Shown here in pieces: positions 16,266 to 54,277 of a stretch of DNA of 64,000 bases. The stretch is taken from the NCBI GenBank assembly GCA_963793305.1, contig CAWBZV010000005.1, forward strand, positions 864,001 through 928,000, written 5' to 3'. Position numbers and translations under genes: made by a program. Source of the stretch: an uncultured Gemmatimonadales bacterium. Its GTDB lineage: Bacteria; Gemmatimonadota; Gemmatimonadetes; Gemmatimonadales; Gemmatimonadaceae. Below the pieces are notes generated by a model. That model was not told the origin of the DNA. It was given only the letters and a program-made list of their open reading frames with translations, and did no database searches. Position 1 is the stretch's first letter. Each line of letters starts with the position of its first letter.

Positions 16266-16688
16266 TCATTCAGCGGCGCTGGAGCCAGGTGGGGTCGCTT
16301 CCCAGCTGCCAGTGATGTCGATCGGCCACTCCTCCGGTCGCTCTTCTTCGGGCAGATGAGGGCGATACATGATCACCTTCGCGCGCTCGAGGGTGATCAA
16401 CCCTCCATCGATCATCGTGTCGAGCTCGGGGAGTATCGCCGCAATCCGCTCTTCGGTCTCGACGCATTCCACGACGATCGGGAGATCGAACGAGAGATAC
16501 TCGAGGCGGTCCGTGTGCAGGACGGCGTTGGCGCCGAACCCCATGACGCCACGGAATGCGGTCGCCCCGGCGTACCGCCGCTTTCGGAGGAGCTCGATGA
16601 TGGCCTGATACAACGGCTGGCCTTTGTAGTGATCGCGCTCGCCGAGATGAATGCGCATGAGAACGCGCTCGCCCTTGAACCCGTGCAT
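16266..16688 (-). CDS. DUF190 (PII-like) protein
   Basis: LMRIHLGERD, GATAFRGVMGFG, LSFDLPIVVE, GLITLE; GGAGGAG Shine-Dalgarno. Confidence 0.85.
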   Translation of the reverse strand: MHGFKGERVLMRIHLGERDHYKGQPLYQAIIELLRKRRYAGATAFRGVMGFGANAVLHTDRLEYLSFDLPIVVECVETEERIAAILPELDTMIDGGLITLERAKVIMYRPHLPEEERPEEWPIDITGSWEATPPGSSAAE

Positions 16689-16703
16689 CGGCTCCTCCCG
16701 TTT

Positions 16704-17117
16704 TTACAAGTCGAGCGGCCCCGGCGTATCCGTGGTTTGCCCGACTTCGATCAGATAGCCGTCCGGATCACGCATGTAGCACCGTATCTCTGTTTCATGA
16801 ACCTTCGGCTCGGTGACAAACTTCCCACCGCGCGATGACCAGAGGTCATAGCACCGCTTGATGTTGGTGACGCGGAGATTCAGAAAGTAGCTCAAGACGT
16901 TCGGATCGCGCGGCGGCGACGCGACGACATCGGGTTTATCATCGGTTGGCCCGCCACCGAGGGCGATGATGATCCACGTATTCCCCAGTTGCACGTACGT
17001 CGGCTCCCCATCATCCACGACGGTAGCCCCCAGCACGTCGCGATAAAACGCCACCGATCGAGCGATATCGCGAACGATTACCGTGCTCGTCACTCTGAAC
17101 TGCGGTTCCGTTATCAT
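16704..17117 (-). CDS. VOC/glyoxalase family protein
   Basis: VRDIARSVAFYRDVLG and RDPDGYLIE motifs; ATGA overlap with upstream ORF. Confidence 0.85.
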   Translation of the reverse strand: MITEPQFRVTSTVIVRDIARSVAFYRDVLGATVVDDGEPTYVQLGNTWIIIALGGGPTDDKPDVVASPPRDPNVLSYFLNLRVTNIKRCYDLWSSRGGKFVTEPKVHETEIRCYMRDPDGYLIEVGQTTDTPGPLDL

Positions 17118-17341
17118 GGCGGACCACCCTGTTCTTTCCAGGTCTTGAACCTCGCACACGCTTCGGCAGTCCACCGCGGCTCGCCAGCGCTCGGCGGAGG
17201 CATGTGCCCGCTCAGCACGGCCTCATAGATCGCATCGGCGTGTGCGAAGACGCTGTCGCGATCGGAAAGGTCCATTGCCTTCTTCATGTGGGCTACATCC
17301 ATGTCGGTGAACATGGGACGGATATCGGATGCGAAGCTCAA
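17114..17341 (-). CDS. Small hypothetical protein
   Basis: AGAAGGAGG Shine-Dalgarno before TTG start; coupled to the VOC gene; SF..DIRP.F...D..HM...DLS...MPP...W pattern. Confidence 0.65.
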   Translation of the reverse strand: MSFASDIRPMFTDMDVAHMKKAMDLSDRDSVFAHADAIYEAVLSGHMPPPSAGEPRWTAEACARFKTWKEQGGPP

Positions 17342-17353
17342 AATACCTCCTTC

Positions 17354-17398
17354 TGTCTATCGTTTGTCCAGTTTTTGTCCTTGACATAAGCTAGTCAA
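17354..17398. promoter_or_regulatory. Candidate CarH-type operator 1 over divergent promoters
   Basis: TGTC at 17354/17365/17376 and GACA/GTCA at 17383/17394 (11-bp period); contains TTGACATAAGCTAGTCAA; minus-strand TTGACT-N17-AAAACT promoter candidate. Confidence 0.65.
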
Positions 17399-17437
17399 GA
17401 TGGTATATATGTGTTGGCGGTTGGGCCCGGAGGGCTG

Positions 17438-17929
17438 ATGCAAATTCGACGCTATGTCCCCATCCTCGTCGCGCTCGCGACGCTCGTGGTGGTTGTCTCC
17501 TGCAGCTCGATCAGCCAGCGGAAGGTAGCGCAGATTGGCCCGCAGGATCCCCTCGGCAGTGCACACTGGACCGGCACATTGACGATGCCGAGCGGGTCGC
17601 ACGGCGCGTACGACGTGTCCGGCACGGCGTCGCTGGTTCGCAATGGACCCGGCAGCAGTGTGGCGACCGTCGTGATCAGCAACGCGGTACCCCGAGGATT
17701 CCATCCGTGGGAAGTCTACCGCGGACAGTGTGGCCATGACGCGAGCTTGATCGGCGTGTTGAGCGCGTATCCGTGGCTCGCTGTCAAGGACGACGGCACG
17801 GCCTCCGCCACCGCGACATTGGCCTCTGAGCTGTTGGTCGGCGACTATCACGTCAACGTGAACGCGTCGCCGACGGACAAGGCGACGATCATCGCCTGCG
17901 GCAATGTTGCGGCACCCAGCGGTACGTAG
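17438..17929 (+). CDS. Lipoprotein of CHRD/Cu-Zn-SOD-like type, paralog A
   Basis: GGAGG Shine-Dalgarno, lipobox-like VVSC, HPWEVYRGQCG, YHVNVNAS, IIACGN. Confidence 0.7.
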   Translation: MQIRRYVPILVALATLVVVVSCSSISQRKVAQIGPQDPLGSAHWTGTLTMPSGSHGAYDVSGTASLVRNGPGSSVATVVISNAVPRGFHPWEVYRGQCGHDASLIGVLSAYPWLAVKDDGTASATATLASELLVGDYHVNVNASPTDKATIIACGNVAAPSGT

Positions 17930-17945
17930 CGCGACCACGTGACCC

Positions 17946-18398
17946 ATGCCCACACCGGGTAGAGACCGCGCCCGCGAGCTGGCGTGCCAACTGCTCACTC
18001 GCGAAACATTGGCGCCGCCGGGCGCCGACACGACAAACGGAGCCGACCGCGTCTGTCGACGCGCGTCCGACGAGCTGTCCCGTTGGATCGGTACCGATGG
18101 ATGTCGCGCCCTCTTCGCGCGCGCGTTGGCCACGGCCCAGGCCGAGGGCGGTCATCCCGTACTCGACACGGTGCGAACGAGCGCCCGGTCGGTGTACTGC
18201 CTGGACGGTCTGAGTGACGCCGCGGCCCGCCATGGCGCGGCGGCCGCTACCGATGGCGCGGCGGCCGTGCTCGCGGCGCTTATCGAGCTTCTCGGCCGAC
18301 TGATCGGAGATGATATGGCGTTGAGTCTTCTGGAACAAAGTGCGTACGCCCGTCCCCCGACCCCCGCCCGCGCCCGTCGCGGACAGGTGACCCCATGA
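17946..18398 (+). CDS. Hypothetical protein coupled to the KaiC-like ATPase
   Basis: ATGA overlap with next gene; LSRWIG..G..ALFARAL and LIELLGRLIG helices. Confidence 0.65.
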   Translation: MPTPGRDRARELACQLLTRETLAPPGADTTNGADRVCRRASDELSRWIGTDGCRALFARALATAQAEGGHPVLDTVRTSARSVYCLDGLSDAAARHGAAAATDGAAAVLAALIELLGRLIGDDMALSLLEQSAYARPPTPARARRGQVTP

Positions 18399-19834
18399 TG
18401 ATTCACCTCGTGGGGCGCGACGACGAGATACGCGAGGACGAGATAGTGGATGGGTCGCTCATCGGATCCGTGCTGACGGCCGTCCCTGGTCTCGATGCGG
18501 TGCTGCGCGGCGGACTGCCGGAGCTCTCGTTCAACCTGATCGCCGGCGGACCAGGCGCCGGAAAAACCACGCTGGCGCAGCAGATCGTGTTCAGCAACGC
18601 CACCGTCGAGCGCCCCGCGCTCTATTTCACGGTGCTCGGCGAGCCGACCCTCAAGATGCTGCGCTACCAGCGGCAATTCCGCTTCTTCCAGTCAGACCTC
18701 GTCGGCACCGCCGTGCATTTCATCAATCTGGCCGAGGAAGTGCTGCGCGACGATCTCGCCGCGGTCCTCCACCGGATCGTCGACGAAGTCGAGCGCATCG
18801 GCCCGGCGTTCGTGGTCGTCGACTCGTGTCGCACCCTCGGCCTCCACGCATCGGGGCGGCAGACTCCCGACGCGATGGGCATGGAGCAATTCGTGCAGCG
18901 GCTCGCGCTCCAACTCACGACGTGGGAAGTGACCTCCTTTCTGATCGGCGAATACGCCGCGCCCGACCTCGCGAATCCGCTCTTCACCGTGGCCGACGGC
19001 ATTCTCTGGCTCTCGCAAGCGCCAGAACGCAACTCGGTCGTCCGCAAGTTGCAGGTGGTCAAGATGCGCGGGCGGGCTCCGATACCAGGTCTCCACACGT
19101 TCCGGATGACCGACCGCGGCATCCAGGTCTTTCCACGTATTCCGGGACACCAGGAAGCGCGCCGCCCGCGACGCCAAGAGCGGCTCGCCACCGGCGTCCC
19201 GGGACTCGATGCCATGACGGGCGGCGGCTATCCCGCGGGTGACGCGGTCTTGATCACCGGACCGGCCGGCAGTGGAAAGACGATGTTCGCCACGCAGTTC
19301 CTGGCCGATGGCCTCACGCGCGGCGAGGCCGGAGTCGCGGTCGTCTTCGAGGAATATCCGGACGCTTATCTCGCCCGAGCGACGGCGTTGGGTCTCGACC
19401 TCCAGGCGATGACCGAGCGACACAAGCTGGCCGTCATCTATCTGCGCCCGCTGGATCTCTCGGTCGATGAAACGCTGGCCGCCATCCTCGATGCCGTCGA
19501 GCGCCTCGGCGCGACGCGCGTGGTCATCGACTCATTGTCGGGGTTCGAGGTGGCGCTCGCTCCGACTTTTCGCGACGACTTTCGCGAGTCGCTCTATCGG
19601 CTCGTCGGGGCACTCACGGCGACGGGTGTCACCGTTCTCATGACCGCGGAAACGCCACTCGAACGCGTGTCTTTCGTGACAGACGACATCATCGTGCAAC
19701 GATATGTGGAGATCGCCGGTGAGCTCCGGCCCATGCTGGCCGTCGTCAAGATGCGCGGCAGTGCACATAGCAGAGACTATCGCGCGTATGAGATCACCGC
19801 GCGCGGTGCGGTCGTCGCGGATGCCGGTGCATAA
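18395..19834 (+). CDS. Double-domain KaiC/RAD55-family ATPase
   Basis: Two Walker A motifs (GGPGAGKT, GPAGSGKT), VVVDS/VVIDS Walker B, two VVKMRG motifs, TGVPGLDAM. Confidence 0.9.
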   Translation: MMIHLVGRDDEIREDEIVDGSLIGSVLTAVPGLDAVLRGGLPELSFNLIAGGPGAGKTTLAQQIVFSNATVERPALYFTVLGEPTLKMLRYQRQFRFFQSDLVGTAVHFINLAEEVLRDDLAAVLHRIVDEVERIGPAFVVVDSCRTLGLHASGRQTPDAMGMEQFVQRLALQLTTWEVTSFLIGEYAAPDLANPLFTVADGILWLSQAPERNSVVRKLQVVKMRGRAPIPGLHTFRMTDRGIQVFPRIPGHQEARRPRRQERLATGVPGLDAMTGGGYPAGDAVLITGPAGSGKTMFATQFLADGLTRGEAGVAVVFEEYPDAYLARATALGLDLQAMTERHKLAVIYLRPLDLSVDETLAAILDAVERLGATRVVIDSLSGFEVALAPTFRDDFRESLYRLVGALTATGVTVLMTAETPLERVSFVTDDIIVQRYVEIAGELRPMLAVVKMRGSAHSRDYRAYEITARGAVVADAGA

Positions 19835-21622
19835 ATGGACCCCCTGGTTGCCGGGGCCGACGCGTCGCTCGCGCTCGTGCAGCACTTTCTGGAGCACGCA
19901 CCAGTGGCGTCAGCGGTCGTCAGCGGTGCCGCGCACGGATGCGTCTTCACCAACGCCGCGTTCCGGCGCATCAGCGCGGACGCGGGGGTGTACGCCGGCA
20001 TAGGTGATCCCATCGCCGATGCGTTGCCCGCTGAGGCGCGCGACGATGTGAACGCGTTGCTGGACCGCGTGCGGCGAGACGGCGTCGCGGCGTACCACGC
20101 GCGCATCGGACTCCTCTGGCTGTGCGACGCGTGGCCCGTCGTGGAGGAAGGCGGACGGTTGGACTATCTGGTCGTCACGCTGCGCCAGGCGCAACGCCGC
20201 GAGGTCACGCGGATGCGCCACCGGGCGATCACCGAGCGGCTGTTGCTCGCGGCGCTGCGCGAGCAGGATGGGGCCCGCCGCGCGGACAACGCGCGCGCCC
20301 GCGCGGTGTTCCTGGCCGAGACGAGTCGGCGCCTCGGCGGGTCCCTCGGGCTGGCCGCCGCCTATGCCGCGGTCGCGACGGTCGCGCTCCCGGTCCCGGG
20401 CGCGTGGTCCATCGTCGACGTCGACCAAGCCAATGGCGGCTGGCGACGGCTGGCGATCGCGCACCCCGATCGGACCAAGGAAGCACTCGCCGGCGAGCTC
20501 GCCGGACATTGGTCGCCGGCGCCCGGCGATCCGCTTGGCGTCCCACTCATCGCGCAGTCGCGCGTATCGACGATCGTCGCCTCGGACACCGAGGCGGTGC
20601 TCGCCGGCGCGGCGCACGGTCCGGATAATCTCCGTATTCTCCGCGCCCTCGAGCTCGGCGCGCTCCTCGTCGTGCCGCTCATCGCCCACGAACGGCTCCG
20701 CGGCGCCATCACATTCGTCAACCCGATGGAGGCCGCTCCGTATACGAGCGATGACGTCGTCCTCGCGGAGGACCTCGCGGCCCGTTGCGCGAATCTGCTC
20801 GATGGCGCGCGCCGCTACGACGACGGGCGCTTGGCCCAGATCGGCGCCGACACGGCGCGCGATGACGCCGAGCACGCCAACGAGGCGAAAGACGCCGTCC
20901 TCACCTCGATGAGCCACGAGCTCCGCACGCCGTTGAACGCCATCCTCGGGTATACCGAGCTGCTGACGTTGGGCACGCAAGGACCGGTGTCCGCGGACCA
21001 GACCGAGGCCTTGAGTCGGATTCGACGCGCGGGTATGCACCTGCTCGGCCTCATTAACGATGTCTTGCAAGTCGCGCGGCTCAGCGATTCGCAAGCGCGC
21101 TTTCTCATCACCGACGTGCCCGTGGGTGAAGTACTCGATGCGGCTGGGTACATGGTCGCACCGCTCGCCGTGGCCCAGCGGCTCGAGCTGGCGCGCGTGC
21201 CCTGTCCAGTGACGCTCTCCATGCACGCCGATCGGGACAAAGTGCTCCAGATCTTGCTCAACGTGCTGGCCAACGCGATCAGGTTCACGGCACCCGGCGG
21301 GCGGGTCATCCTGGCGGCGGTACCGGTCGATCGACGCCGGACCGGGAGCGCGCCGCCACTCGCTCCACCGGCGGCCGCACAGTCGGTGCGGCTCACGGTG
21401 AGTGACACGGGGCGGGGGATTTCCCTCGACCAGCTCCAGACGATCTTCGAGCCGTTCGTGCAGGTTGGCGCGCGCTTGGCGGGCAAGGACGAAGGGACCG
21501 GGCTCGGCCTCGCTATCAGCCGCGATCTCGCGAGAGGGATGGGCGGCGACCTCACGGTCGAGAGCACGCTCGGTGTCGGATCGACATTTACTCTGATCGT
21601 CCCCGGCGTCACCGTGGTGTAA
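19835..21622 (+). CDS. PAS/GAF sensor histidine kinase
   Basis: MSHELRTPLNAI, QILLNVLANAIRF, DTGRGI, FEPFVQ, GTGLGL. Confidence 0.9.
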   Translation: MDPLVAGADASLALVQHFLEHAPVASAVVSGAAHGCVFTNAAFRRISADAGVYAGIGDPIADALPAEARDDVNALLDRVRRDGVAAYHARIGLLWLCDAWPVVEEGGRLDYLVVTLRQAQRREVTRMRHRAITERLLLAALREQDGARRADNARARAVFLAETSRRLGGSLGLAAAYAAVATVALPVPGAWSIVDVDQANGGWRRLAIAHPDRTKEALAGELAGHWSPAPGDPLGVPLIAQSRVSTIVASDTEAVLAGAAHGPDNLRILRALELGALLVVPLIAHERLRGAITFVNPMEAAPYTSDDVVLAEDLAARCANLLDGARRYDDGRLAQIGADTARDDAEHANEAKDAVLTSMSHELRTPLNAILGYTELLTLGTQGPVSADQTEALSRIRRAGMHLLGLINDVLQVARLSDSQARFLITDVPVGEVLDAAGYMVAPLAVAQRLELARVPCPVTLSMHADRDKVLQILLNVLANAIRFTAPGGRVILAAVPVDRRRTGSAPPLAPPAAAQSVRLTVSDTGRGISLDQLQTIFEPFVQVGARLAGKDEGTGLGLAISRDLARGMGGDLTVESTLGVGSTFTLIVPGVTVV

Positions 21623-21698
21623 GCCGTCCGAGCAGAGCGCGCATGAGCGTGGCTCGTATTATGCCCTGTCTCGTGTATGACATCAGGTGGAGCGCGTC

Positions 21699-21932
21699 AT
21701 GGCAGCACCGGCAATCGTGAGGCACCACGAGGATGGGCGCAATAACCCGCGCTCGCACGTCGGTGACCACGCGAGCGAGGATCCAACGATCGCTCGCGTT
21801 ATACCCCGAGGCGCTTGGCGCCGCGCGCACGTCCATCACTCGCGAGCTGAAGTCGTGGGGGTCATCCTGTGGTGGATCGTGATCGGCGCGCTCACGATTG
21901 GAAGCGTGATATTCATCATCGACCAACCGTAA
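21699..21932 (+). CDS. Small hypothetical membrane protein
   Basis: GGAG upstream of ATG; C-terminal hydrophobic stretch VVGVILWWIVIGALTIGSVIFII. Confidence 0.35.
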   Translation: MAAPAIVRHHEDGRNNPRSHVGDHASEDPTIARVIPRGAWRRAHVHHSRAEVVGVILWWIVIGALTIGSVIFIIDQP

Positions 21933-22053
21933 CATGCGACCTCGCGCGATGTAGCAGCACCATGCACGCTGTTGCTCGATCGGACTGTTGTCGGCGGCGG
22001 GGCACCTGACACGCCGGGGTGGTTGTCCGAGAGAAGTTGGCCCTGGAGGGCTT

Positions 22054-22551
22054 ATGTACGTTCGACATTACGCGCTCATCACGACCTCGCTCGCGACGCT
22101 GGCTATTGTCAGCTCCTGCAACCCGTTCGTCAGTCATCAGAAGGTCGGTCAGATCGATCCCAAGAACGCCCACTCGAGCACACAGTGGAATGGCACGCTG
22201 TCGACGACCGGCGGCATGAGCGGCGCGGTCGACATGCACGGCACAGTCTCGCTCGGTGCCAACGGACCCGGAAGCAGCCTGGCGACAATCGCCATCAGCA
22301 ACGCCGCTCCCAAGGGTGTCCATCCGTGGGAGGTCTACCGTGGCCAGTGTGGCAATGACGGTGACGTGATCGGTGCGTTCAGCGCTTATCCGCCGCTCAC
22401 GGTCAGGAACGACGGCACGGCGACGGCGATCGCGACGTTGCAGGCCGAGTTGCCGGTGACCGGCGACTATCACGTGAACGTGAACGCGTCGTCGACCAAC
22501 ATGGCGACGATCATTGCCTGCGGCAATCTCGCCGCGCCGAGCGGAGCGTAG
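22054..22551 (+). CDS. Lipoprotein of CHRD/Cu-Zn-SOD-like type, paralog B
   Basis: GGAGG Shine-Dalgarno, lipobox VSSC, same HPWEVYRGQCG, YHVNVNAS and IIACGN motifs as 17438..17929. Confidence 0.7.
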   Translation: MYVRHYALITTSLATLAIVSSCNPFVSHQKVGQIDPKNAHSSTQWNGTLSTTGGMSGAVDMHGTVSLGANGPGSSLATIAISNAAPKGVHPWEVYRGQCGNDGDVIGAFSAYPPLTVRNDGTATAIATLQAELPVTGDYHVNVNASSTNMATIIACGNLAAPSGA

Positions 22552-22560
22552 TTCGTAAGG

Positions 22561-22595
22561 CCCGCTCCTGACACTCGGCCAGTGTCAGGAGCGGG
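22561..22595. terminator. Hairpin between convergent genes
   Basis: Perfect 15-bp stem CCCGCTCCTGACACT / AGTGTCAGGAGCGGG with 5-nt loop; no clear U-tract. Confidence 0.6.
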
Positions 22596-22702
22596 ATAGG
22601 CTCAACGCAAGAGATCGCCAACCCGCGCAACGACGAATCGATAGCCACAGGCCACGTGACGACGACTTCGCATTTGTTCGCGATGCGAGGTCGCTTTCGT
22701 TT

Positions 22703-23689
22703 CTACGGCGTCGCCGCGAATAGCCGATCCGGCACGAGCACGACCTTGCCCGCCACGCCAGCCGCGACGCGCGCATACGCCGCGGCGGCTTGAGAGAGCG
22801 GGTATCGCTCGACAACGGTGAGCGGAGCGAGCGCGCCGGACTCGAACAGCGGCACGAGCGCCGTAAGGACGCGCGCACATTTGACGGCCTCGTCGGCAAC
22901 TGTGTCGACGCTCAGCACGCGGAGGCGGCGGTGATAGAACGAGAGGAGGTCGAGCGTCACCTCCCGCCCGCCCGCGGCAGAGTAGACCACCATCGCTCCG
23001 CCTGGGGCGAGAGCGTCGAGCATCGGCTGAAAGATCGCGGCGCCGACGCCGTTGAGCGCGAGGTCGCAGCCGCGGCCATTGGTCGCGGCGCGGACGACCG
23101 ACACGAGATCGTTCTGGTCCGATCTCGCGATGGCCGCGACATTGGCAACGATGCGCGTGGCCTCAGCGGCGTCTTTGACGAGCGCGACCACGTGAGCGCC
23201 ACGCGCGACGGCGAGTTGGGTCGCGGCAAAGCCGACCGCACCGGCGGCTCCGGAGGCGACGAGCCACTGTCCCTCGGCCAGCTGCCCAGCTTGCACCACC
23301 GTCCACGCCGTGATGAATGGTACGCCGATCACCGCGGCCTGCTCGTCAGTGAGATTCTTGGGGCGGAATGCAATCGCGTCGCGGGGGAGCACTACGTACT
23401 CCGCGTGCGCACCATCTCGCCGAATGCCGAGATCGCCGCCGGACCCGTACACATCACGGCCGACGAGCTCCTGAGGGCCCTCCGTGACCCGTCCGGCGAA
23501 GTCGCGGCCGAGGGTGCGCGGAAGGCGGGCGTTGGCGAAACGGCCCTCGGCGCTGACGATATCGCTGGGGTTGATCGCGGCGGCGTGGACCTCGACCAAG
23601 ACGTCGTCCGGCCCCGGCGTCGGCATCGGGATATCGCTAGGAGAGAGCGCGGTGATCGGACCGTGCGCGGCTATGCGAAGCGCTTGCAT
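22703..23689 (-). CDS. MDR-family NADPH:quinone oxidoreductase / Zn-ADH-like protein
   Basis: VLVEVHAAAINPSD, LGRDFAG, GAHAEY, GAAGAVG, GKVVL. Confidence 0.88.
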   Translation of the reverse strand: MQALRIAAHGPITALSPSDIPMPTPGPDDVLVEVHAAAINPSDIVSAEGRFANARLPRTLGRDFAGRVTEGPQELVGRDVYGSGGDLGIRRDGAHAEYVVLPRDAIAFRPKNLTDEQAAVIGVPFITAWTVVQAGQLAEGQWLVASGAAGAVGFAATQLAVARGAHVVALVKDAAEATRIVANVAAIARSDQNDLVSVVRAATNGRGCDLALNGVGAAIFQPMLDALAPGGAMVVYSAAGGREVTLDLLSFYHRRLRVLSVDTVADEAVKCARVLTALVPLFESGALAPLTVVERYPLSQAAAAYARVAAGVAGKVVLVPDRLFAATP

Positions 23690-23916
23690 TGCCTGCTAAG
23701 GATAACCCAACGCCCTGGTCGATAGACCCCTTTCAGTTCCACGCCATTGTTTCACGGCGTCCCGTGGCACGTTCGCGAAACGGTCGCTCTCGAGCGTGAC
23801 CGCGTGCCAACCATCTCGCTCGCTTCGACTTGTGCCCGTCGCACTCCGAGGCCCGCGCCCGGGTCCGGTCTTGCTATTGTACGCTCGCGTTCTCCCACGC
23901 ACACGAGGATACCGAG

Positions 23917-24831
23917 ATGATCCGATATGCAGTGCTGGCGCTCGTTGCGTCAGCGACGACGATCCAAGCGCAAAACATGATGCACGACGCGATGGCGTCG
24001 CACGATCCCAATTCCGCGCCGAAGGCGATGGTCGATCGATTCAGCGCCGCCGCCGGTCACTTGCAACTCCGCACGGCCGACAACGGCATCCCTCAGGCCA
24101 ACGCCCCCGTCGATTTCGACCACGGCCCGTTTATCACGATGGGGCACGGCCCCAAGGGCCAACTGGTCATGTACTACAACTTCGACGTCCAGCCGTCGAA
24201 GGCCGCGACGATCTATGTGTTGGTGCACGCGGGCTCGATGACGCCAGTCGAGGGCCAGTTGCCGATCATCGATGAGCTCCCCGGTGAGACCGGGTACAGC
24301 GACTTTCGTCAGGTCGTTCGCGTGACAGTACCGGCGGACTATCACACGAACACGGCCGCGAGCGTGAAGGACATCGAGAGCGCCGGTTGGCCGACGGAGC
24401 GAACCACGACGATCGTCAACGATCCGATCGTACCCGAAGGCTCGCACGCGCGCCACGGCATCGATGGACATCCCGCGCCGCTTCGCGCCGCGTGGTACCG
24501 TGGACAGACGGTGCGGTTTCTGGCATTCGAGCAGGATCTCCAGGGCGATGCCGCGGGGACCGTTCCCGTGTCACCGATCTTCGTCACGTTCGTGAAAAAC
24601 CCCGGCGAGTCCGGTGGTGGGCCCGGCTCGGGCTTCAAGACCGAGGGCGGATCGATGCAGACGCACAACGTCGTCGCCACGGTTCCCGGTGAGCCCGGGT
24701 ATTCACCCCTCTGGCAGGTGAGCGTGTACGACAACGGCGCGTTCGCGTTGGTCAGCGATCTCCCGTCGGTGGGGCGCGCCAAGATTCTTGCGCAAAGCGT
24801 CGCGCTGGTGAACTGCCCGGTCGTGCACTAG
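23917..24831 (+). CDS. Secreted hypothetical protein with internal repeat
   Basis: GAGG Shine-Dalgarno, signal peptide MIRYAVLALVASATTIQAQ; repeated PG..GYS motif and VNDPIV/VNCPVV ends. Confidence 0.7.
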   Translation: MIRYAVLALVASATTIQAQNMMHDAMASHDPNSAPKAMVDRFSAAAGHLQLRTADNGIPQANAPVDFDHGPFITMGHGPKGQLVMYYNFDVQPSKAATIYVLVHAGSMTPVEGQLPIIDELPGETGYSDFRQVVRVTVPADYHTNTAASVKDIESAGWPTERTTTIVNDPIVPEGSHARHGIDGHPAPLRAAWYRGQTVRFLAFEQDLQGDAAGTVPVSPIFVTFVKNPGESGGGPGSGFKTEGGSMQTHNVVATVPGEPGYSPLWQVSVYDNGAFALVSDLPSVGRAKILAQSVALVNCPVVH

Positions 24832-24848
24832 GGAGGACCATAGTCCGT

Positions 24849-24881
24849 CGGCCGCGGCGGCCTTGTCGGCCGCCGTGACCG
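24849..24881. terminator. GC-rich hairpin between convergent genes
   Basis: GCGGCGGCC-TTGTC-GGCCGCCGT stem, downstream of groL and of the convergent gene. Confidence 0.5.
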
Positions 24882-24909
24882 GTGGAAAAGTGCTCTTCGC
24901 GGTGAACGC

Positions 24910-26876
<1,967 letters not shown>

Positions 26877-26901
26877 GAAGACTCCCGTTCGATAGACTAT
26901 G

Positions 26902-26980
26902 AACATATACCCCGGGATGGTATCTGTCAATGTTTTGTCCTAGACATATATTTGACAGACTCACGCTTGAGGCGTATCCT
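26902..26980. promoter_or_regulatory. Back-to-back sigma70-type promoters overlapped by candidate CarH-type operator 2
   Basis: Minus TTGACA(26930-26925)-N17-TATGTT toward groS; plus TTGACA(26952)-N17-TATCCT; TGTC at 26925/26936 and GACA at 26943/26954. Confidence 0.7.
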
Positions 26981-27024
26981 TCAAGGGTCAGATCGCCACT
27001 CAGCCTTATGTCAGGAGCTGCCTT

Positions 27025-27342
27025 ATGGATGGCCCAATGCGCGAAGTCACGTTCACGCAGACGCACCGTCGCACACACCGGCGTCGCAACATCATCGTCT
27101 CGCAATTCGACGACACGAAGAGCGTGATTCCCATTCGGCCCAGTGAGGCTCCGGCTCCGGCGCTCTTGAACGACGGCCGCGCGTGGCGCTACATCGTGCA
27201 GACCGACGACGGCCCGTGGACGACGCATCGCCGTGTCGACATCTCGCTCGACGCATCGGACAGCGAAGTCGTGCTGGCGGTGGCGCGCCATCTGGCGAGC
27301 CCCGGTTGGAATCGCAATGCAGCCGTGGCGCGGATCCTGTGA
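27025..27342 (+). CDS. Small hypothetical protein
   Basis: AGGAG Shine-Dalgarno before ATG, downstream of a consensus-like promoter. Confidence 0.5.
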   Translation: MDGPMREVTFTQTHRRTHRRRNIIVSQFDDTKSVIPIRPSEAPAPALLNDGRAWRYIVQTDDGPWTTHRRVDISLDASDSEVVLAVARHLASPGWNRNAAVARIL

Positions 27343-27344
27343 CG

Positions 27345-27647
27345 ATGGCCGAACGGGAATTCGACTTCGAGGACGACAGCCGCACGTTCTCGTGCCGCGT
27401 CGAGAAGCGGAACGAGTTGGCGGAACCATGGTGGTGGTTCAAGGTCTCCGGGGACAAGCAGCGCTATGCGCCGTTTCGGGCCGCCCCTGGCGATACGAAG
27501 TACGCGATTCAGTCCCGCATCACGCTGTACTACCGCGATCTCCTGGTCCGCCGCGCAACGCCGGCGGTCCCGTGGCACCGTCGCGGGAAGCCAGTTCCGA
27601 GTCCCGTTGTGGAAACACCTCCCGCGACGGATCCAACAACGGCCTGA
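27345..27647 (+). CDS. Small hypothetical protein
   Basis: MAEREFDFEDDSRTFSCRVE...WWWF...QRYAPFRA; plausible composition, starts 2 nt after upstream stop. Confidence 0.6.
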   Translation: MAEREFDFEDDSRTFSCRVEKRNELAEPWWWFKVSGDKQRYAPFRAAPGDTKYAIQSRITLYYRDLLVRRATPAVPWHRRGKPVPSPVVETPPATDPTTA

Positions 27648-27831
27648 CCGTTGGCCTGCCGCTCAGGCGTCGCAGTGCCAGTGCACCGGCGCCGAGCGCG
27701 GCTCCGCCCAGCGCGAGTCCCGCGAAGAGGGTGAGGCCGATGGCGACTAACGCGCCTCCGACAACGACCGCCATCGCGCCGACCGCAATGGCGGTCGCTT
27801 TGTTTCGTACCGTGATCTGATACACGCGCAT
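27520..27831 (-). CDS. Small membrane protein downstream of the MerR regulator
   Basis: Starts immediately after the regulator's stop; two hydrophobic helices; 3' end overlaps the convergent ORF. Confidence 0.45.
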   Translation of the reverse strand: MRVYQITVRNKATAIAVGAMAVVVGGALVAIGLTLFAGLALGGAALGAGALALRRLSGRPTVRPLLDPSREVFPQRDSELASRDGATGPPALRGGPGDRGSTA

Positions 27832-28770
27832 CTACGTCTCCGACTGACCCGCGGCGCGGAGTGCCAGTCTCAAGTCGGTGAGACTCTCGATGACGTGGAC
27901 TCCCGTTCCCCTCAGCTCCGCGGCGATCTCGAGCGCGCCGGCTCCGCCGGCGAGCAGCGGTACGCGGGCCGCGAGTCGCACGCGCAACGTCCGCAGTTCC
28001 TGGAGCAGCAACTCGTCGTTGCCGGCTCGTGGCACCGTCACGCTGACCGCGCGAGCCGATGTGCTCGTGGCGGCCACCGCGATCTCGCTCACCGGCACGC
28101 CGGGACCGAGATACGTGACGCGCCACCCTTCGATGGCCGCTCCAGCCGTCGCCATGACGGCCTCGATCTCCTGGCGGTCGCCCACGGGAGTCGCCACGAG
28201 CAAGTTCGGGGCGTCGCCCGAGACGATGAGCACGGGCACAATGCCCTCGATGACTCGGCGGAGCGCGACGAGGACCAACTGCTCCTCGCCGGGGGCGAGC
28301 TCCCCAGCGCTGCGTTCGTCGCCGATCTGTTTCAAGAGCGGGGTCGCCACGGTGTCGAGAAACGCGCTGGCGCCGACGAGCGCGGCGGATCGCCGCAGCA
28401 GGCGCTCGAGACCGACGGCATCGAGGGCGCGCGCGCGGGCGCGAGCTTGGGCGACGTCATCCGCGGCCGTTGTGCCCGAGGTCCGTGCGCGACGAGTGGT
28501 GCCGAGTTGGCGGCGTGCTTCCTCGTCATCGCGGACCAGCCGCGCCAATTCTTTCGTGGGCAGCTTGGCAACCTGGGAAATGCCGCGTCCGGCCGCGGTG
28601 GCCAGGGCCATCAGGCGGAGTCGCTCGATATCGGCGTCGGAGTAGAGTCGCCGGCCACCATCGGTCCGCGTCGGCTCGATGGCGCGATAGCGGCGCTCCC
28701 ATACCCGGAGCACGTGCGGGCTGATGCCGGTTCGTTCTGCGGCCACTCCAATCGGATGTTCGTCTACCAT
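27832..28770 (-). CDS. CarH/LitR-like MerR-family regulator with degenerate cobalamin-binding domain
   Basis: TGISPHVLRVWERRY...RTDGGRRLYS (CarH-type winged helix); four-helix bundle plus Rossmann domain (GWRVTYLGPGVP, LAGG); His ligands replaced. Confidence 0.85.
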   Translation of the reverse strand: MVDEHPIGVAAERTGISPHVLRVWERRYRAIEPTRTDGGRRLYSDADIERLRLMALATAAGRGISQVAKLPTKELARLVRDDEEARRQLGTTRRARTSGTTAADDVAQARARARALDAVGLERLLRRSAALVGASAFLDTVATPLLKQIGDERSAGELAPGEEQLVLVALRRVIEGIVPVLIVSGDAPNLLVATPVGDRQEIEAVMATAGAAIEGWRVTYLGPGVPVSEIAVAATSTSARAVSVTVPRAGNDELLLQELRTLRVRLAARVPLLAGGAGALEIAAELRGTGVHVIESLTDLRLALRAAGQSET

Positions 28771-28771
28771 T

Positions 28772-28805
28772 TGTCAACGTTATATGATTGACATAGGTTA
28801 GTCAA
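28772..28805. promoter_or_regulatory. Candidate autoregulatory operator 3 and leaderless promoter of the regulator
   Basis: TTGACATAGGTTAGTCAA (16/18 identical to the 17381 site); TGTC 28772, GACA 28790, GTCA 28801; minus TTGACT-N17-TAACGT-N6-ATG. Confidence 0.65.
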
Positions 28806-31352: not shown

Positions 31353-34300
31353 TCAAGGTACCAGTTGCCGCAGGTCGTCGCCCAGATGGCGAAATTCGAG
31401 GATCGCGCCCGCCAGGATCGCCGCCGCGACGAGCGCCGCGAGGAGCTGCAGCACCCGTTGCAGCCAGCGTGGACCCGCGAAGAGCCAGACGCGCGTCACG
31501 GTGATGAGCACGCGGATCGCGACGGTCACGGCCACCAGCGTGATGGCGAGCGACCGCAGCCCTTGGAACGGGGGAATGAGGAAGGCCCCCGCCAGCACGA
31601 GTAACTCGGCCACGAACAGGACCTGCAGCCACCGGCGCGTCATGATCGCGAACAGGCTCTCCTGCGTTGCGACCTCGACCAATCCCCACAGTGCGCTGCC
31701 GAGACGGCTCAAGACGACCGCGCCGCGATTGAGCTCGGGGCGCTCGTAGTCGGTCCCGAGGCGGTCGAGCATCCGGCCCATCACGCGGCTGGCCCGAGAA
31801 ATCAGAGTCGCTGCCTGTGGGCGGTCGAGCGTCCGATCGATGTTCGTTCCGGCCGCGTACACCGCGCGCAACTGCGCCGGTGTACTCAAAAGATCGCGCA
31901 AGGCGTCAGCCGGCACGGTCGCCGGCTGATTGGCATCGATCGCCGTCGCGAGCGCGCCCGTCGCCTTCGCGACCGCATCCCCCCGCACCTGGGTCTCGAA
32001 GATCGTCGCGTGCGCCTCGGCCACCCACGTTTGCCACGTCCCGGTCTGAGCCGGATCGCGCCCGGCCATCACCGCCTTGATGAGCCGCTCCGCGCCATCG
32101 AGCCGGCCCCAGGTGAGGTCGTTCTGACGCCACCCTCGATTGAGGAAGGCGCCGAAGTTCCGAAGCGCGGTGCCGGCCAACTTCGGCGAGAGCGGCGGCC
32201 GGCGATCCACGCGCTCATTCACGATCTCGGTCGCGTCCTCCGGCGAGATCCGCACGACGTCGATGCGCGACAGGTTGCCTTGCACCGCCGTCGCGTAGCG
32301 AATCGGATAGGTCACCGAGTCGACACACTCGAACGAGTCGTACACGAACCGGACGACATCCCGGACCTCGACCCATCGCGCGTTATCGGTGGCACTCGAG
32401 GTGAAGAGCGTATCGACCAGCTGGCTCGCCTCCCGCATCGGGGGCGTGACGCGGTTCGCGACCGCGTAGGCAATGTCGTCGAACGCCTTCCACTGTTGCC
32501 CCACGAGTTGGTCCGCGTAGGCGAGCCGCTCGGTCTCCGTGGGGAGCGCCAGCAGCTTGGCGACGCTCTCGTGCGTCAGCGCCGCCGCATCGACCGCGAC
32601 GGCGAGCGCGTTGACCGGCGTCTCCGGTTTGCCGCGGGCGCCCCGGGCCGTCAGTGTGTCCTGCGCGCGGCGCAGGGACTCGTAGGCTGTGCTCAGCGTC
32701 TTCGAGAGCACCGCGATCGCCCGTTGGATATTGACCACATCGTCAGGCGTCCACGTGGTGCGCGCCCGCGCGAACAGGCTGTCCTCGGGCTGCTCGCGAT
32801 CGGGCATGACCCGATCGATGTTGGCGCGGATGGCGTCCACGAGACGATCGGTGCGGTCGTCCATGGCCGACAGGGTGTCGAGCCGCATCAAGGTGAGATC
32901 GAGGCGTCGCAGGCGATAGCTGAGGTCGAAGCGAAACAGAAAAGCGTTTTCGGTCTCTCGCGCGTCGCTCGCCGGCGGCGCACTCGTGGCCGCTGGAATG
33001 GTCTTCGACACGGCCGGCGCGTTTTTCTGGTGCTCTTCCGCGAACCGTCGCTCACGCCACGCGCGGGCGAGGTAGCGAATCGCCCGCACATCATCGGATT
33101 CGGCCGGGAATCCCGCGAGCGTCGCGATCACGTTCGCGAAGTCATCGGTGACGCTCGCGACTTTGAGCCGGTGAAATCCGGCGTAGGACGGCCCCAGTTT
33201 GTCGATCCGCTCCTGCAACCCTTCGGACGCCCAAGCATACCCTTCAGTGCGCATGACGTCCGCGCGCTCCTGGAACGTCGCCGGTGAGCTCCGAAAGCAC
33301 TTGCCCGCGATCAGCACGCTCAAATTGCCGTTGGATCCGCTCAGGATGCGGTCCACCCGGTCGATCAACTGGTTGCGTTCCGCCACGCGTTGGAGCTCGT
33401 CGCGAATCGTCTCTTGGCCCGCCAGCGTGAGCGCGGCGATCGTGTTCTCTACGACCGTCGGCCGCGGCACCGGCGCGCCATCGGCAGTCGCCACAATGAC
33501 GTCTTCCGGGTGCTGCGGCGACGGCTCGACGTAGATCAGCTTGCGGTCCATCGGTTTTGTCCCGCGCACCGCCGACAACGCGTCGATGGCGTAGCTGAAC
33601 GGCTTGTTGTCCAGGTACCCGCCGTCGCCGAACGCGTGATTCTGCACGTCATAGATGGCGCTGTCGGTATCGACCGAGGGCGGGGCGACGTACTCGGGGA
33701 AATACCGTTGCCACCGGGTCGTCGGCCCGGCTCCCAGAACAGTCACGATGTCCCTGATCTGCACGGGCTCGAACGCGATCGGAAAAGCCGACGTGCACCT
33801 CGCCGCGAACGCCAGCATCGGGTTCTCCGATGCCGCGAAGTCGTCGGCCACCTTCGGCGCGAAGCGAAACCGGAAGAATTTGCGATGCCAACTCTCGGTC
33901 ACGCGTTCGTCGGACAACGACAGGTAGATGGGCAGCCCCTGAATGTCCGTCGTGGTGACGAAGCAATCGATGCTGTCAACCAGCGCTCCACGGCTGGCGG
34001 CTGCTGCCTTGGACTTGTCCATCCCGTCGAACGCGTTGTACAGCAGCTTGAGCATGCGACGACCGTTGAGCAGCGACGGCGGCGGGTCATCGAACGGAAT
34101 GTGCGGGAGGGCCGACTGCTTGTCGTAGAGCAACGTGCTCATGTCGGCGAGTTGGATCCATAAGCTCGCCAGCTGGTCGAGCTGCTGGCCGTGCGCGAGC
34201 GCCTTCGCCAGGTAGATGCCGTTGATCCCACCGGCCGAGGTGCCGGAAACGATGTCGACAATGAAGCGGGTGTAGATGGTTCCGGGCCCGCTCGAACTGA

Positions 34301-34541
34301 CCCGGTCGCTGTGCAGCACCTTGGCGAGGCGCCGGTAGACCCGCTCGGTCGGGGTCAACTCTTCGTCGGCGAAGCGGGCGACGGTCGGATCGGTGGGATC
34401 CGGCGCCGTCGCCCGCACCATGCCGAGCAGTTCCTGCACGACACCATTGATGTACACCGCCAGCGACACGCCGCCGTAGAGGACCACGGCGAACCGCAGT
34501 TCTCGCCGCACATCCATTGCCGGGCGGTTCAGGTCGGCCAT
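31353..34541 (-). CDS. Patatin-like protein with DUF3376-type C-terminus
   Basis: ELRFAVVLYGGVSLAVY, GTSAGGING, DGGYLDNKPF, KLAG...FGAF...WRQNDLTWGRLDG; C-terminal TM helices. Confidence 0.88.
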   Translation of the reverse strand: MADLNRPAMDVRRELRFAVVLYGGVSLAVYINGVVQELLGMVRATAPDPTDPTVARFADEELTPTERVYRRLAKVLHSDRVSSSGPGTIYTRFIVDIVSGTSAGGINGIYLAKALAHGQQLDQLASLWIQLADMSTLLYDKQSALPHIPFDDPPPSLLNGRRMLKLLYNAFDGMDKSKAAAASRGALVDSIDCFVTTTDIQGLPIYLSLSDERVTESWHRKFFRFRFAPKVADDFAASENPMLAFAARCTSAFPIAFEPVQIRDIVTVLGAGPTTRWQRYFPEYVAPPSVDTDSAIYDVQNHAFGDGGYLDNKPFSYAIDALSAVRGTKPMDRKLIYVEPSPQHPEDVIVATADGAPVPRPTVVENTIAALTLAGQETIRDELQRVAERNQLIDRVDRILSGSNGNLSVLIAGKCFRSSPATFQERADVMRTEGYAWASEGLQERIDKLGPSYAGFHRLKVASVTDDFANVIATLAGFPAESDDVRAIRYLARAWRERRFAEEHQKNAPAVSKTIPAATSAPPASDARETENAFLFRFDLSYRLRRLDLTLMRLDTLSAMDDRTDRLVDAIRANIDRVMPDREQPEDSLFARARTTWTPDDVVNIQRAIAVLSKTLSTAYESLRRAQDTLTARGARGKPETPVNALAVAVDAAALTHESVAKLLALPTETERLAYADQLVGQQWKAFDDIAYAVANRVTPPMREASQLVDTLFTSSATDNARWVEVRDVVRFVYDSFECVDSVTYPIRYATAVQGNLSRIDVVRISPEDATEIVNERVDRRPPLSPKLAGTALRNFGAFLNRGWRQNDLTWGRLDGAERLIKAVMAGRDPAQTGTWQTWVAEAHATIFETQVRGDAVAKATGALATAIDANQPATVPADALRDLLSTPAQLRAVYAAGTNIDRTLDRPQAATLISRASRVMGRMLDRLGTDYERPELNRGAVVLSRLGSALWGLVEVATQESLFAIMTRRWLQVLFVAELLVLAGAFLIPPFQGLRSLAITLVAVTVAIRVLITVTRVWLFAGPRWLQRVLQLLAALVAAAILAGAILEFRHLGDDLRQLVP

Positions 34542-46292: not shown

Positions 46293-46655
46293 ATGAGAGC
46301 CTTTCTGATCCCAGCTGCGCTATTGGTCATATCCAACACGTTCATGACGTTCGCCTGGTACGGCCACCTGAAATACGAGAAGACGGCCTTGTGGATCGTG
46401 ATCCTCGTGAGCTGGGGCATCGCGTTCTTCGAGTACTGCTTTCAGGTACCCGCCAATCGCATCGGCAACATCGCGGGTACCTCGGCCGGCCAGCTCAAAA
46501 TCATGCAAGAGGCGATCACCTTGGTCGTGTTCGCCGTCTTCGCCCGCCTCTACCTGGGCGAGCGACTCACCTGGAACTACTACGCCGCCTTTGTGCTGAT
46601 CTTCGGCGCAGTATGCCTCGTCTTTATTCCGGCGTCCAGTGTGGGTGGCTCGTGA
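46293..46655 (+). CDS. DMT-family small membrane protein (DUF486-like)
   Basis: SNTFMTFAWYGHLK, SWGIAFFEYCFQVPANRIG, QLKIMQE. Confidence 0.85.
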   Translation: MRAFLIPAALLVISNTFMTFAWYGHLKYEKTALWIVILVSWGIAFFEYCFQVPANRIGNIAGTSAGQLKIMQEAITLVVFAVFARLYLGERLTWNYYAAFVLIFGAVCLVFIPASSVGGS

Positions 46656-47382
46656 ACAGACCGTCGACGATGCCGATCCGGTAGGCGATAAAAAGGCCGA
46701 AAGCGAGGCTGATCGCGCCGGACGCGACTCGGAGCCCACGGGGGCTGATCCACCCGAACGGCAAGCTGATGACCATCGTCATGAGCATCATCCCAACGAT
46801 GGTGCCGAGCCCGAAAATCAGCAGATAGAATACCGCCAGACCGGGATCGTGAATCGTCGTCAGCACGAGCAACGCGACGGCGGCCGATCCGGCAAGACCG
46901 TGCACGATCCCGACCATCAGGGGTCGGACGTACCGATAGGCGCCCAGCGCGCCGAAGTGCCGGTCGAGCCAGCCGAGTGGCGTTGCTTCAGCCGCGTGCG
47001 AATGCGCTTCGGGCTCATGTCCGTGCACGTGCGTGTGCACATAGTCGCCATGCTCATGCGCATGTGCATGCACGTGTTTCGAGCGTGGAATGATGCCTCG
47101 AAGGTTCATGAACCCGAGTAGCACCAGCATCACACCGACGGTCCATTCCATGGAGAGCCCGAGGCGCGGTGGGATCACCCAGCCGAACACGATGATCCCG
47201 CTTCCGACCGCCAGTATCGTCAAGGTGTGCCCGACGCCCCATACCGCGCCGATGGCCGCGGCGCCGCCGACGGATCGTTGCCGCGTGATGATCGTCGTCA
47301 CCGCGATGACGTGGTCGGGGTCAGTGGCGTGGCGCATCCCCAAGAAGAATCCCAAGGACAGAACCGCCAGGAGCCCGGTCAC
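46624..47382 (-). CDS. High-affinity nickel transporter (NiCoT/UreH-like)
   Basis: GMRHATDPDH, WGVGHT, His-rich loop, GIVHGLAGS; last gene of the hydrogenase operon. Confidence 0.85.
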   Translation of the reverse strand: MTGLLAVLSLGFFLGMRHATDPDHVIAVTTIITRQRSVGGAAAIGAVWGVGHTLTILAVGSGIIVFGWVIPPRLGLSMEWTVGVMLVLLGFMNLRGIIPRSKHVHAHAHEHGDYVHTHVHGHEPEAHSHAAEATPLGWLDRHFGALGAYRYVRPLMVGIVHGLAGSAAVALLVLTTIHDPGLAVFYLLIFGLGTIVGMMLMTMVISLPFGWISPRGLRVASGAISLAFGLFIAYRIGIVDGLFTSHPHWTPE

Positions 47383-48038
47383 GGAATCGCCGCCTCCAGC
47401 AAGGCGACGAGCTCCCCCATGCCTTCGCCGGTCTTGGCCGAGACGGCCAATGTCCGCATGCCGGGCCGTACAGCCTGCACGTTGCGTTCGATGGCGTCCC
47501 GGTCGAACTCCACGGCAAGGGCGAGGTCCATCTTCGTGATCACCGCGACGTCGGCGGTATTGAAGATCGTCGGATACTTGAGCGGCTTGTCTTCACCTTC
47601 GGTGACCGACAGGATCACGCAGCGCAGGTGCTCTCCCAGGTCATACGATGCGGGGCACACCAGGTTGCCCACGTTCTCGAGGAACAAGAAGTCGAGCTGG
47701 TCCAACGCCCATCCGTCAAGGGCTTGCTCGACCATCGCCGCATCGAGGTGGCAAATGGTACCCGTGGTGATCTGCCGGACTTGGGCGCCGCTCCGCGCCA
47801 GGCGTGCGGCGTCATTCTCGGTCGCCAGGTCGCCAACGAGCGCTGCCACCCGATATCGCCTGTGCAAGGTCGTCAGGATTCTCTCGAGCAACATCGTCTT
47901 TCCCGAGCCCGGGCTCGATACCAGACTGACGACAAAGACCCCGTTCTCCTGAAAGCGATCTCGCAATGCCCGCGCGAGGATATCGTTGTGCTTGAGGATA
48001 TTCTGCCGCACCTCGACCAGTCGCGGAGCCATGGTCAT
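47379..48038 (-). CDS. hypB: Hydrogenase nickel incorporation GTPase
   Basis: SSPGSGKT, CHLDA, ENVGNLVCPA, EGEDKPLKYP, TKMD. Confidence 0.95.
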   Translation of the reverse strand: MTMAPRLVEVRQNILKHNDILARALRDRFQENGVFVVSLVSSPGSGKTMLLERILTTLHRRYRVAALVGDLATENDAARLARSGAQVRQITTGTICHLDAAMVEQALDGWALDQLDFLFLENVGNLVCPASYDLGEHLRCVILSVTEGEDKPLKYPTIFNTADVAVITKMDLALAVEFDRDAIERNVQAVRPGMRTLAVSAKTGEGMGELVALLEAAIP

Positions 48039-48277
48039 GACTCGATCTCCAACGCCACGAGCTCCAGCTCCCGGCCGTCGGTATCCTCAATCACGAGACG
48101 TGAACCGGCAATCGGCGTGTCCTGGCATGCGATGTCGAACGAAAACGCCAACGCCTCCTTGGCGACACCAGCCAACTGGCCGATCTTCACATGCACGGCA
48201 CATACGCGCCCGCCCAGGCGCCCGCCTTCCTCCGTGGCGATTTCCACGAGGCTCACGGCTACGGACAATTCGTGCAT
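48035..48277 (-). CDS. hypA: Hydrogenase nickel metallochaperone, short form without Zn finger
   Basis: MHELS N-terminus, V.IGQLAGV..EAL.FSF, GREL C-terminus; no CxxC pairs. Confidence 0.85.
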   Translation of the reverse strand: MHELSVAVSLVEIATEEGGRLGGRVCAVHVKIGQLAGVAKEALAFSFDIACQDTPIAGSRLVIEDTDGRELELVALEIES

Positions 48278-54005: not shown

Positions 54006-54277
54006 GAGGACTCCAGCCCGTAGCCGCGGACCTCTTCCATCGCCGCCAGGTCTTCGCCGAGGATTCTTAACGTTCGCATCTGCTCGGCCGCGTCCTGCTC
54101 GCTGATCTTGCTCATCGCGAAACCGACGTGAATGAGGACCCAGTCGCCAGGAACTGGATGCTCATCGACGAGCAGCCCGAGATCCACGCGCCGGCGCACC
54201 CCATTGACGTCAACGAGCGCGAGCGTCGCGTAATCGGCGACCATCTCGACGATCTTACCGGGAATCGCTAGGCACAT
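54002..54277 (-). CDS. hypC: Hydrogenase assembly chaperone HypC
   Basis: MCLAIPG, GDWVLIHVGFA. Confidence 0.95.
   Translation of the reverse strand: MCLAIPGKIVEMVADYATLALVDVNGVRRRVDLGLLVDEHPVPGDWVLIHVGFAMSKISEQDAAEQMRTLRILGEDLAAMEEVRGYGLESS

Follow-up and report, generated by a model that had tools for sequence, protein, structure and literature searches.

CarH proteins are vitamin B12-dependent photoreceptors for carotenoid and photoprotection genes, and chaperonin genes are controlled mostly by HrcA, sigma32 or HspR. We describe a locus in which a CarH-family regulator with a degenerate B12 pocket lies close to a second groESL copy (groESL2), in a 64,000-nucleotide window (the whole stretch of DNA analysed; contig CAWBZV010000005.1 of assembly GCA_963793305.1, positions 864,001 to 928,000) from an uncultured Gemmatimonadales bacterium. 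From sequence, we put at roughly 0.6 the probability that this regulator binds the operators of the window without B12 or light and represses groESL2, the small genes orf105-orf100, its own gene and, in some members of the genus, the lipoprotein-KaiC and VOC/DUF190 genes; that its action is repression we infer.

The system resembles CarH, or class I LitR, of Thermus thermophilus (PDB 5C8D/5C8E/5C8F) and Bacillus megaterium in protein sequence, in fold and in nnnnTnnACAn repeats over promoter elements. The operators of those proteins hold three or four tandem repeats, whereas here two-repeat arms are inverted to serve two divergent promoters, and the regulon content differs as well. CarH acts as an oligomer that depends on adenosylcobalamin and comes off DNA in light; its B12-independent paralog CarA binds cooperatively as a dimer. 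Myxococcus xanthus CarA is described as having, like the window regulator, an RxWERRY MerR domain and no Trp in Wx9EH (PMC9304148). CarA and CarH act as a pair at the promoter Pcrt, whose 11-bp repeats include the -35 (PMC9304148), much as an intact CarH paralog has the same operator here. CarA keeps the EH and a classic B12-binding motif (PMC9304148), whereas the window regulator has EQ for EH and QxxE for HxxG; CarA targets crt genes, whereas groESL2 and small genes are the candidates here; and, unlike CarA, the window regulator nests among Gemmatimonadales CarH, in a tree that held no myxobacterial row. The SH3-like anti-repressor CarS is acidic (PMC8156234), whereas the products of orf105 and orf100 are basic and without a family match. 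Class II-V LitR proteins (Pseudomonas, Burkholderia, Vibrio, Micrococcales) are members of the CarH family reported not to use B12, as is proposed for the window regulator; in them the Rossmann B12 domain is missing or replaced (PMC9758184), whereas in the window regulator both C-terminal subdomains persist and only single residues are lost. It has no adjacent LOV partner. HrcA on the chaperone-expression controlling inverted repeat (CIRCE) and HspR on the HspR-associated inverted repeat (HAIR) are likewise repressors on inverted repeats at groE promoters, and the MerR-like HspR co-represses groE in Helicobacter pylori (PMC9696931). Here, in contrast, groES2 has neither element, and HrcA/CIRCE serves the other groESL copy. 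Judged by sequence, the system works like CarH and CarA yet departs from CarH in two defining features and from CarA in one. Searches of the open-access literature showed no link of CarH or LitR to groESL or hsp20; what is new here is that the targets are chaperone genes and that the B12 pocket was lost more than once.

Operators and promoters

A first-pass annotation of the DNA had described the repeat architecture TGTC-N7-TGTC-N3-GACA-N7-G(A/T)CA at three promoters, and its strings and positions proved exact. Across the 5.72-Mb assembly of the window's genome (G000, 92% complete), the pattern matches only at 17365-17397 and 26925-26957, with a degenerate copy at 28772-28804; the string TTGACATA(A/G)G(C/T)TAGTCAA, noted earlier at two of the sites, occurs exactly twice in the genome, both times within the window. 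A looser outer pattern gave eight strand-level matches genome-wide, one of them at C2:623386. Each operator is an inverted pair of arms made of 11-bp repeats directed outwards and fitting nnnnTnnACAn, the CarH operator consensus repeat (PMC9304148); site 1 holds a third TGTC repeat at 17354.

To avoid circularity, a 22-bp tandem-repeat profile was trained on other genera, using 39 sites taken from 13 genomes, within the 200 nt that precede carH homologs, while the idea of seeding with 11-bp GACA repeats was taken from the finding itself. In those upstream regions 20 of 34 GACA pairs show the 11-bp spacing, and the commonest TGTC-to-GACA distances are 29 (12/50) and 18 (6/50). The profile placed window sites first and second in the whole of G000, and a bipartite scan, in which its reverse and forward arms were combined, returned six matches at four loci (26924, 17353/17364, 28760 and C2:623385) and none in any of five shuffled genomes (shuffled within 100-nt blocks). 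The fourth locus lies outside the window, at the promoter of a second carH paralog. These scans upheld the earlier proposal of CarH-type 11-bp repeats: the repeat boxes are conserved CarH-type operators, more than chance. Elsewhere in G000 the tandem profile alone gave 11 matches above 16.5 bits, with 9-15 expected by chance, and nine of 12 single matches checked fall within called open reading frames (ORFs); tandem-only targets may exist there, and we claim none.

In a genome rich in GC, could the motif amount to no more than divergent promoters whose -35 boxes overlap? The outer repeats are indeed -35 boxes, and a TTGACT -35 on the reverse strand accounts for the GTCA variant. Against this, only three of 100 sigma70-like promoters in G000 (TTGAC[AGT]-N16-18-TAnnnT) contain both inner elements, and all three are these operators, so the motif is more than coincident -35 boxes and outlives the reduction to TTGACA boxes that the first-pass annotation had named as its own test. 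The 11-bp spacing upstream of carH in other genera, and the company of carH at most operator matches in GTDB (below), also speak against an explanation that we find scarcely credible.

The earlier claim that every operator overlaps a -35 stood in part. At site 2 the divergent promoters of groES2 and orf105, both with 17-bp spacers, each have their TTGACA -35 inside an outermost repeat, and only there did the promoter scanner detect the overlap (both strands, 10/12 matches). At sites 1 and 3 the overlap was seen by eye: a candidate lipoprotein promoter, TTGACA-17-TATATA (TAGTAT in the same-genus genome G001), and, on the reverse strand, a candidate leaderless regulator promoter, TTGACT(28805)-17-TAACGT-6 nt-ATG(28770), which the scanner does not list. 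Operator 2 is near-identical in the same-genus genomes G003, G001 and G004 while the promoter spacers diverge, and the genes flanking it differ between G000 and G003 by a synonymous distance of 0.5-0.8. The motif positions of operator 1 are retained in G001 and G004 although the spacers differ.

A regulator with a MerR helix-turn-helix could instead be a classical activator, bound on the 18-bp palindrome TTGAC-N8-GTCAA and twisting the promoter upon ligand binding, and such a palindrome does begin at the -35 of sites 1 and 3. Promoters of MerR activators have spacers of 19-20 bp, whereas those here are of 17 bp; the palindrome is absent at site 2, and the fold and recognition helix are those of the CarH repressors. 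We consider this alternative very improbable.

The regulator and its B12-binding pocket

The regulator has an intact MerR-type winged-helix domain with RVWERRY (MerR_1, E 2e-15) and matches T. thermophilus CarH over the whole protein (E 2e-20). Its model (predicted local distance difference test score, pLDDT, 81.9) combines a four-helix bundle with the Rossmann cobalamin-binding fold, and the best Foldseek matches are CarH structures (E 3e-12); the NCBIfam HspR model scores 37.7 bits against a cut-off of 105. As at CarH operators, 11-bp repeats lie over the -35/-10 region, here in an inverted rather than purely tandem layout.

The pocket is another matter. In CarH, W131, E141, H142 and H177 have roles in contact with adenosylcobalamin (AdoCbl; PMC11796333), the Trp of Wx9EH contacting the adenosyl group (PMC9304148, PMC11796333). 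The window regulator reads R-x9-EQ at that motif and DRQEIE at D/ExHxxG, the motif of the lower cobalt ligand, with the substitutions W>R153, H>Q164, lower-ligand H>Q200 and G>E203, so that counterparts of T. thermophilus W131, H142 and H177 are all replaced; its Pfam B12-binding score of 25.4 bits lies below the cut-off of 32.1. By these residues, the regulator is not a B12 photoreceptor. Its 59 nearest relatives in the database, at 63-96% identity, form a degenerate clade in which neither the Trp (0/59) nor the Gly (0/59) is kept; two of its members were met among the 80 loci of a metagenome scan. Both C-terminal subdomains show ratios of nonsynonymous to synonymous substitution (dN/dS) of 0.13-0.19 in three same-genus comparisons, and thus the domain is maintained.

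The regulon had been proposed to be other than carotenoid genes, and no carotenoid target was found. The sole squalene/phytoene-synthase gene of G000 sits without an operator in a cluster that reads by eye as hopanoid; no operator precedes the genome's three hsp20, two FAS1, one desaturase, two crtI-like or one prenyl-synthase matches; and photolyase was looked for without success in G000, G001 and G003. As G000 is only 92% complete, the absence of photolyase and carotenoid targets is not proven.

The second carH paralog of G000 (C2:622398-623770; L001:9366-10770) has both Wx9EH and HxxG, and on the other side of the fourth operator an orf105 paralog stands facing it. The C2-type carH and orf105 of G001 and G004 have an hsp20 gene between them; this gene is missing in G000, where the operator stands directly before orf105. 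In G003 (one contig, 94% complete) a single CarH-like gene was found, of the degenerate type, with two operators, at groES2/orf105 and at the regulator's own gene. At E 1e-20 no match came from two of the six genomes in the genus (90% and 94% complete).

The second groESL copy and the other operator-linked genes

The first-pass annotation had placed the groESL of the window under CarH-type control. The copy concerned is a second one, which has the operator; the main copy, on contig C21, keeps a CIRCE and hrcA is present in G000, and HrcA control is therefore supplemented, not replaced. The lack of a CIRCE at the window groES, also claimed earlier, was confirmed (none within 5 mismatches upstream of groES2), and there is no HAIR element within 2 mismatches near the operator sites. 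Conservation at orthologous genes could be followed in a survey of 41 distinct groES copies, which includes one CIRCE row (L049) from the unpublished genome G012 on which none of the conclusions rests: all four same-genus groES2 copies have the operator and no CIRCE, while the remaining 37 comprise 32 with CIRCE, one cut by a contig end inside a visible CIRCE, and four other second copies without CIRCE.

Might groESL2 be a bystander, the operator being kept for orf105-orf100 and autoregulation while a chaperonin operon landed on the arm whose promoter drives carH at C2-type loci? At C2 the homologous operator separates carH from (hsp20-)orf105, which puts groES2 in the place that carH has there, and orf105 follows the operator in both regulator lineages. 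Yet the groES2 -35 lies within a repeat and its -10 is conserved, reading TATAAT in G001 and G004; groESL2 is under purifying selection (groES2 dN/dS 0.09 against G003; groEL2 in Table 1); and Roseisolibacter has groESL behind the operator in a different arrangement. Even were the position accidental, binding would cover the groES2 -35. We regard the bystander explanation as quite unlikely, and repression of groESL2 by the regulator remains the preferred reading.

Other groEL copies of G000 are less tidy. The main CIRCE-linked groEL (C21:23312-24878) is recovered by tblastn in two pieces that differ in frame, and a more distant third groEL (C2:821704-823542), without a groES match, is also split; these splits may be assembly indels, and if real would leave the window groEL as the only intact copy. 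Second groESL copies without CIRCE also occur at L066 (G009:C44), L068 (G059:C7) and L071 (G043:C117). That of G009 has repeated TTGACC-N3-GGTCAA-like palindromes upstream, and those of G059 and G043 have a divergent gene for a 285-289-aa protein, by eye a helix-turn-helix regulator. GroES-GroEL trees are poorly resolved and neither establish nor reject a shared origin for the second copies of the window, Roseisolibacter and G009. In soil metatranscriptomes, nine runs contain 5-12% of the sequence words, and related-strain contigs from four runs cover groESL2, orf105-orf100 and parts of the regulator, one of them spanning the operator; they give neither strand nor level, and most groEL cover comes from other organisms. 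They do not count as evidence here.

The features of the window are collected in Table 1. orf105, which matches nothing in the Atlas, Pfam or NCBIfam, was found in one of 400 other genomes of the order, there without the tested partners in the 20 kb fetched; orf100 is likely co-transcribed with it. Modelled as a complex with orf105, the regulator scored 0.02 where the mark is 0.32 (0.42, 0.00 and 0.02 in the separate runs), which decides neither way. Homologs of the lipoprotein follow the same operator in G017, G063, G181 and Roseisolibacter; its weak fold similarity to superoxide dismutase (SOD), a prediction for a protein with few histidines, fits a general stress set. We infer that the 150-aa ORF, the KaiC-like ATPase and the GAF kinase belong to the lipoprotein operon. 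A second lipoprotein copy (22054-22551, 60% identical) has no operator, and in G001 a FAS1 gene lies just before its counterpart. The 580-aa esterase-like gene on the right-hand side of site 3 is not counted among the targets, since its place in G003 is taken by a different gene. Farther along, positions 46600-61100 read by eye as a NiFe hydrogenase cluster with maturation genes and a nickel transporter, and 31353-34541 as a 1062-aa ORF with a GTSAGG motif, patatin-like by eye.

Table 1. Operators, promoter-like sites and genes of the window (positions in the window; pI, isoelectric point; TM, template-modelling score).
Feature	Positions	Strand	Description
Operator 1	17354..17398		Between the 75-aa ORF and the lipoprotein gene; TGTC at 17354, 17365, 17376 facing GACA/GTCA at 17383, 17394; bipartite scores 38.4, 35.3
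Operator 2	26925..26957		TGTC-N7-TGTC-N3-GACA-N7-GACA; score 40.8, best in genome
Operator 3 (putative autoregulatory)	28761..28805		Score 30.1; overlaps candidate leaderless regulator promoter
groES2 promoter-like site	26902..26930	-	TTGACA-17-TATGTT
orf105 promoter-like site	26952..26980	+	TTGACA-17-TATCCT
groES2	26568..26876	-	Second co-chaperonin gene; 83% identity with the copy under CIRCE control
groEL2	24910..26547	-	Intact 545-aa chaperonin; dN/dS 0.07-0.09
CarH-family regulator	27832..28770	-	312 aa; MerR helix-turn-helix with RVWERRY, four-helix bundle, Rossmann domain
orf105	27025..27342	+	Basic, pI 10.5, no known family; paralog follows C2 operator
orf100	27345..27647	+	Basic, pI 9.3, no known family
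Lipoprotein-like protein	17438..17929	+	Weak Cu/Zn-SOD-like fold, best E 1.6e-3, TM about 0.5
Cassette behind lipoprotein	17946..21622	+	150-aa ORF, KaiC-like ATPase (18395-19834), GAF histidine kinase (19835-21622); tight spacing
Genes divergent from operator 1	16266..17341	-	75-aa ORF (17114-17341), VOC/glyoxalase (16704-17117), DUF190 (16266-16688)

Distribution, mechanism and significance

The strict operator pattern matches 57 loci in GTDB, about two being estimated by chance at even base composition, and 53 of the 57 have a carH homolog within 3 kb. A TAnnnT element lies 16-18 nt past the outer repeat at 35/57 and 31/57 loci, against 1/57 at a control distance. Genes nearby include FAD oxidoreductase (35 loci), fatty-acid desaturase (25), hsp20 (6), groESL (4), photolyase (3), crtI (2), FAS1 (2) and lipoprotein (2); of the four groESL loci, three show the arrangement of the window's genus again and do not count as independent. 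Related operators stand before hsp20 in several Gemmatimonadales. In the cultured Roseisolibacter sp. H3M3-2, carH faces lipoprotein-groES-groEL across the operator, a separate groES bears CIRCE, and in the regulator Trp is replaced by Val and His by Gln. Trees (a quick first one of 108 rows, without duplicates, most of the Acidobacteriota rows and most of the distant metagenome rows, and a second of 36 rows) group the window clade with CarH proteins linked to FAS1/DUF378, whereas the Roseisolibacter type falls next to those linked to hsp20. Forcing the two B12-less groups together was rejected (approximately unbiased test, p 3e-54) in the 36-row tree, for a group picked after the first tree; as judged from these sequences, the B12 residues were lost separately in the two lineages.

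Related loci elsewhere vary the theme. Some 35 Acidobacteriota loci (L087-L140) have the same compact inverted operator between an intact carH and a desaturase/FAD oxidoreductase cluster, a conserved CarH regulon. A B12-less CarH-like gene in G181 (L282:1769-6930, contig C3) comes with four operators in 5 kb, preceding a lipoprotein homolog, small unknown proteins and the CarH-like gene itself, with IF-1-like and cold-shock-like genes nearby. In the Gemmatimonadales locus L092:2-1020, a window-like cassette of a 150-aa ORF and a KaiC-like gene lies downstream of a carH-hsp20 pair. A further B12-less group (P0073, P0096 and L278 of G260; W>R, EH>ER, HxxG>RxxE) adjoins FAS1 and falls near the window clade in the tree.

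Several observations weigh against constitutive repression of groESL2 in the absence of B12. Of the 59 clade members 50 keep the lower-ligand His, as do G001, G003 and G004, and some binding of a tetrapyrrole may therefore persist; an intact carH paralog with the same operator is found in G000, G001 and G004, and a cobalamin adenosyltransferase in all three genomes searched. A groESL under a CarH-type operator is also rare and its distribution narrow: 59 further carH loci of the order, hand-picked as top matches plus a spread (25 first taken with 1.5 kb of flank, six of these refetched longer), include six with hsp20 and none with groESL under the operator, and a groESL near carH-hsp20 in G177 was dropped as a further case because it has a CIRCE. 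The four same-genus genomes are one event, not four, and the two groESL2 lineages, of the window and of Roseisolibacter, may share one origin. Lastly, the VOC/DUF190 and lipoprotein-KaiC arm, included in the regulon by the first-pass annotation, has its operator in G000, G001 and G004, but no counterpart was found in G003; the conserved core is therefore groESL2, orf105-orf100 and autoregulation.

The first of these observations lend themselves to a light-controlled regulon, in which the C2 CarH, or residual corrinoid or heme binding, is the switch and groESL2 a photo-oxidative-stress gene, and in several genomes hsp20 does lie behind CarH proteins with W and H intact. However, G003 retains the groES2 operator with no intact CarH found, the adenosyl-contacting Trp is lost throughout the clade, G000 has Gln at both His positions, and neither photolyase nor carotenoid targets came to light. 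We judge light control unlikely, and return to repression without B12 or light.

For such repression, the regulator would act as a constitutive CarA-like oligomer, held together by its degenerate C-terminal domain, with one dimer on the two tandem repeats of each half of the inverted operator. A bound operator would block both divergent promoters at once; with dimers over both back-to-back -35 boxes, groESL2 and orf105-orf100 would therefore be switched together, and the repressor would limit its own synthesis. Where an intact C2 CarH is present, it could share the window sites, as CarA and CarH do in Myxococcus, and would add a light- and AdoCbl-sensitive layer. The least certain step is release. 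HrcA and HspR respond to chaperone shortage by a similar feedback, and we place first a loss of fold or oligomer by the repressor under protein-damaging stress, when chaperonin runs short, although even this is doubtful. A partner protein acting as anti-repressor comes second and seems somewhat unlikely; a non-B12 ligand at the retained His comes last, as rather unlikely.

As a tentative possibility, the CarH family in Gemmatimonadales may have turned chaperone regulator, of hsp20 and of a second groESL, with its pocket rebuilt at least twice, under purifying selection, as a B12-free sensor of stress that damages proteins. The natural series of intact CarH with hsp20 and two B12-less lineages with groESL lends itself to asking how a photoreceptor changes its signal, and the idea is testable, since operator, both promoters and repressor are defined to the base and the cultured Roseisolibacter sp. 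H3M3-2 has a parallel arrangement. If the reading is true, a CarH-derived repressor on a second groESL would be a further route of chaperonin control beside HrcA, sigma32 and HspR, and would join CarH light sensing and chaperonin regulation as fields.

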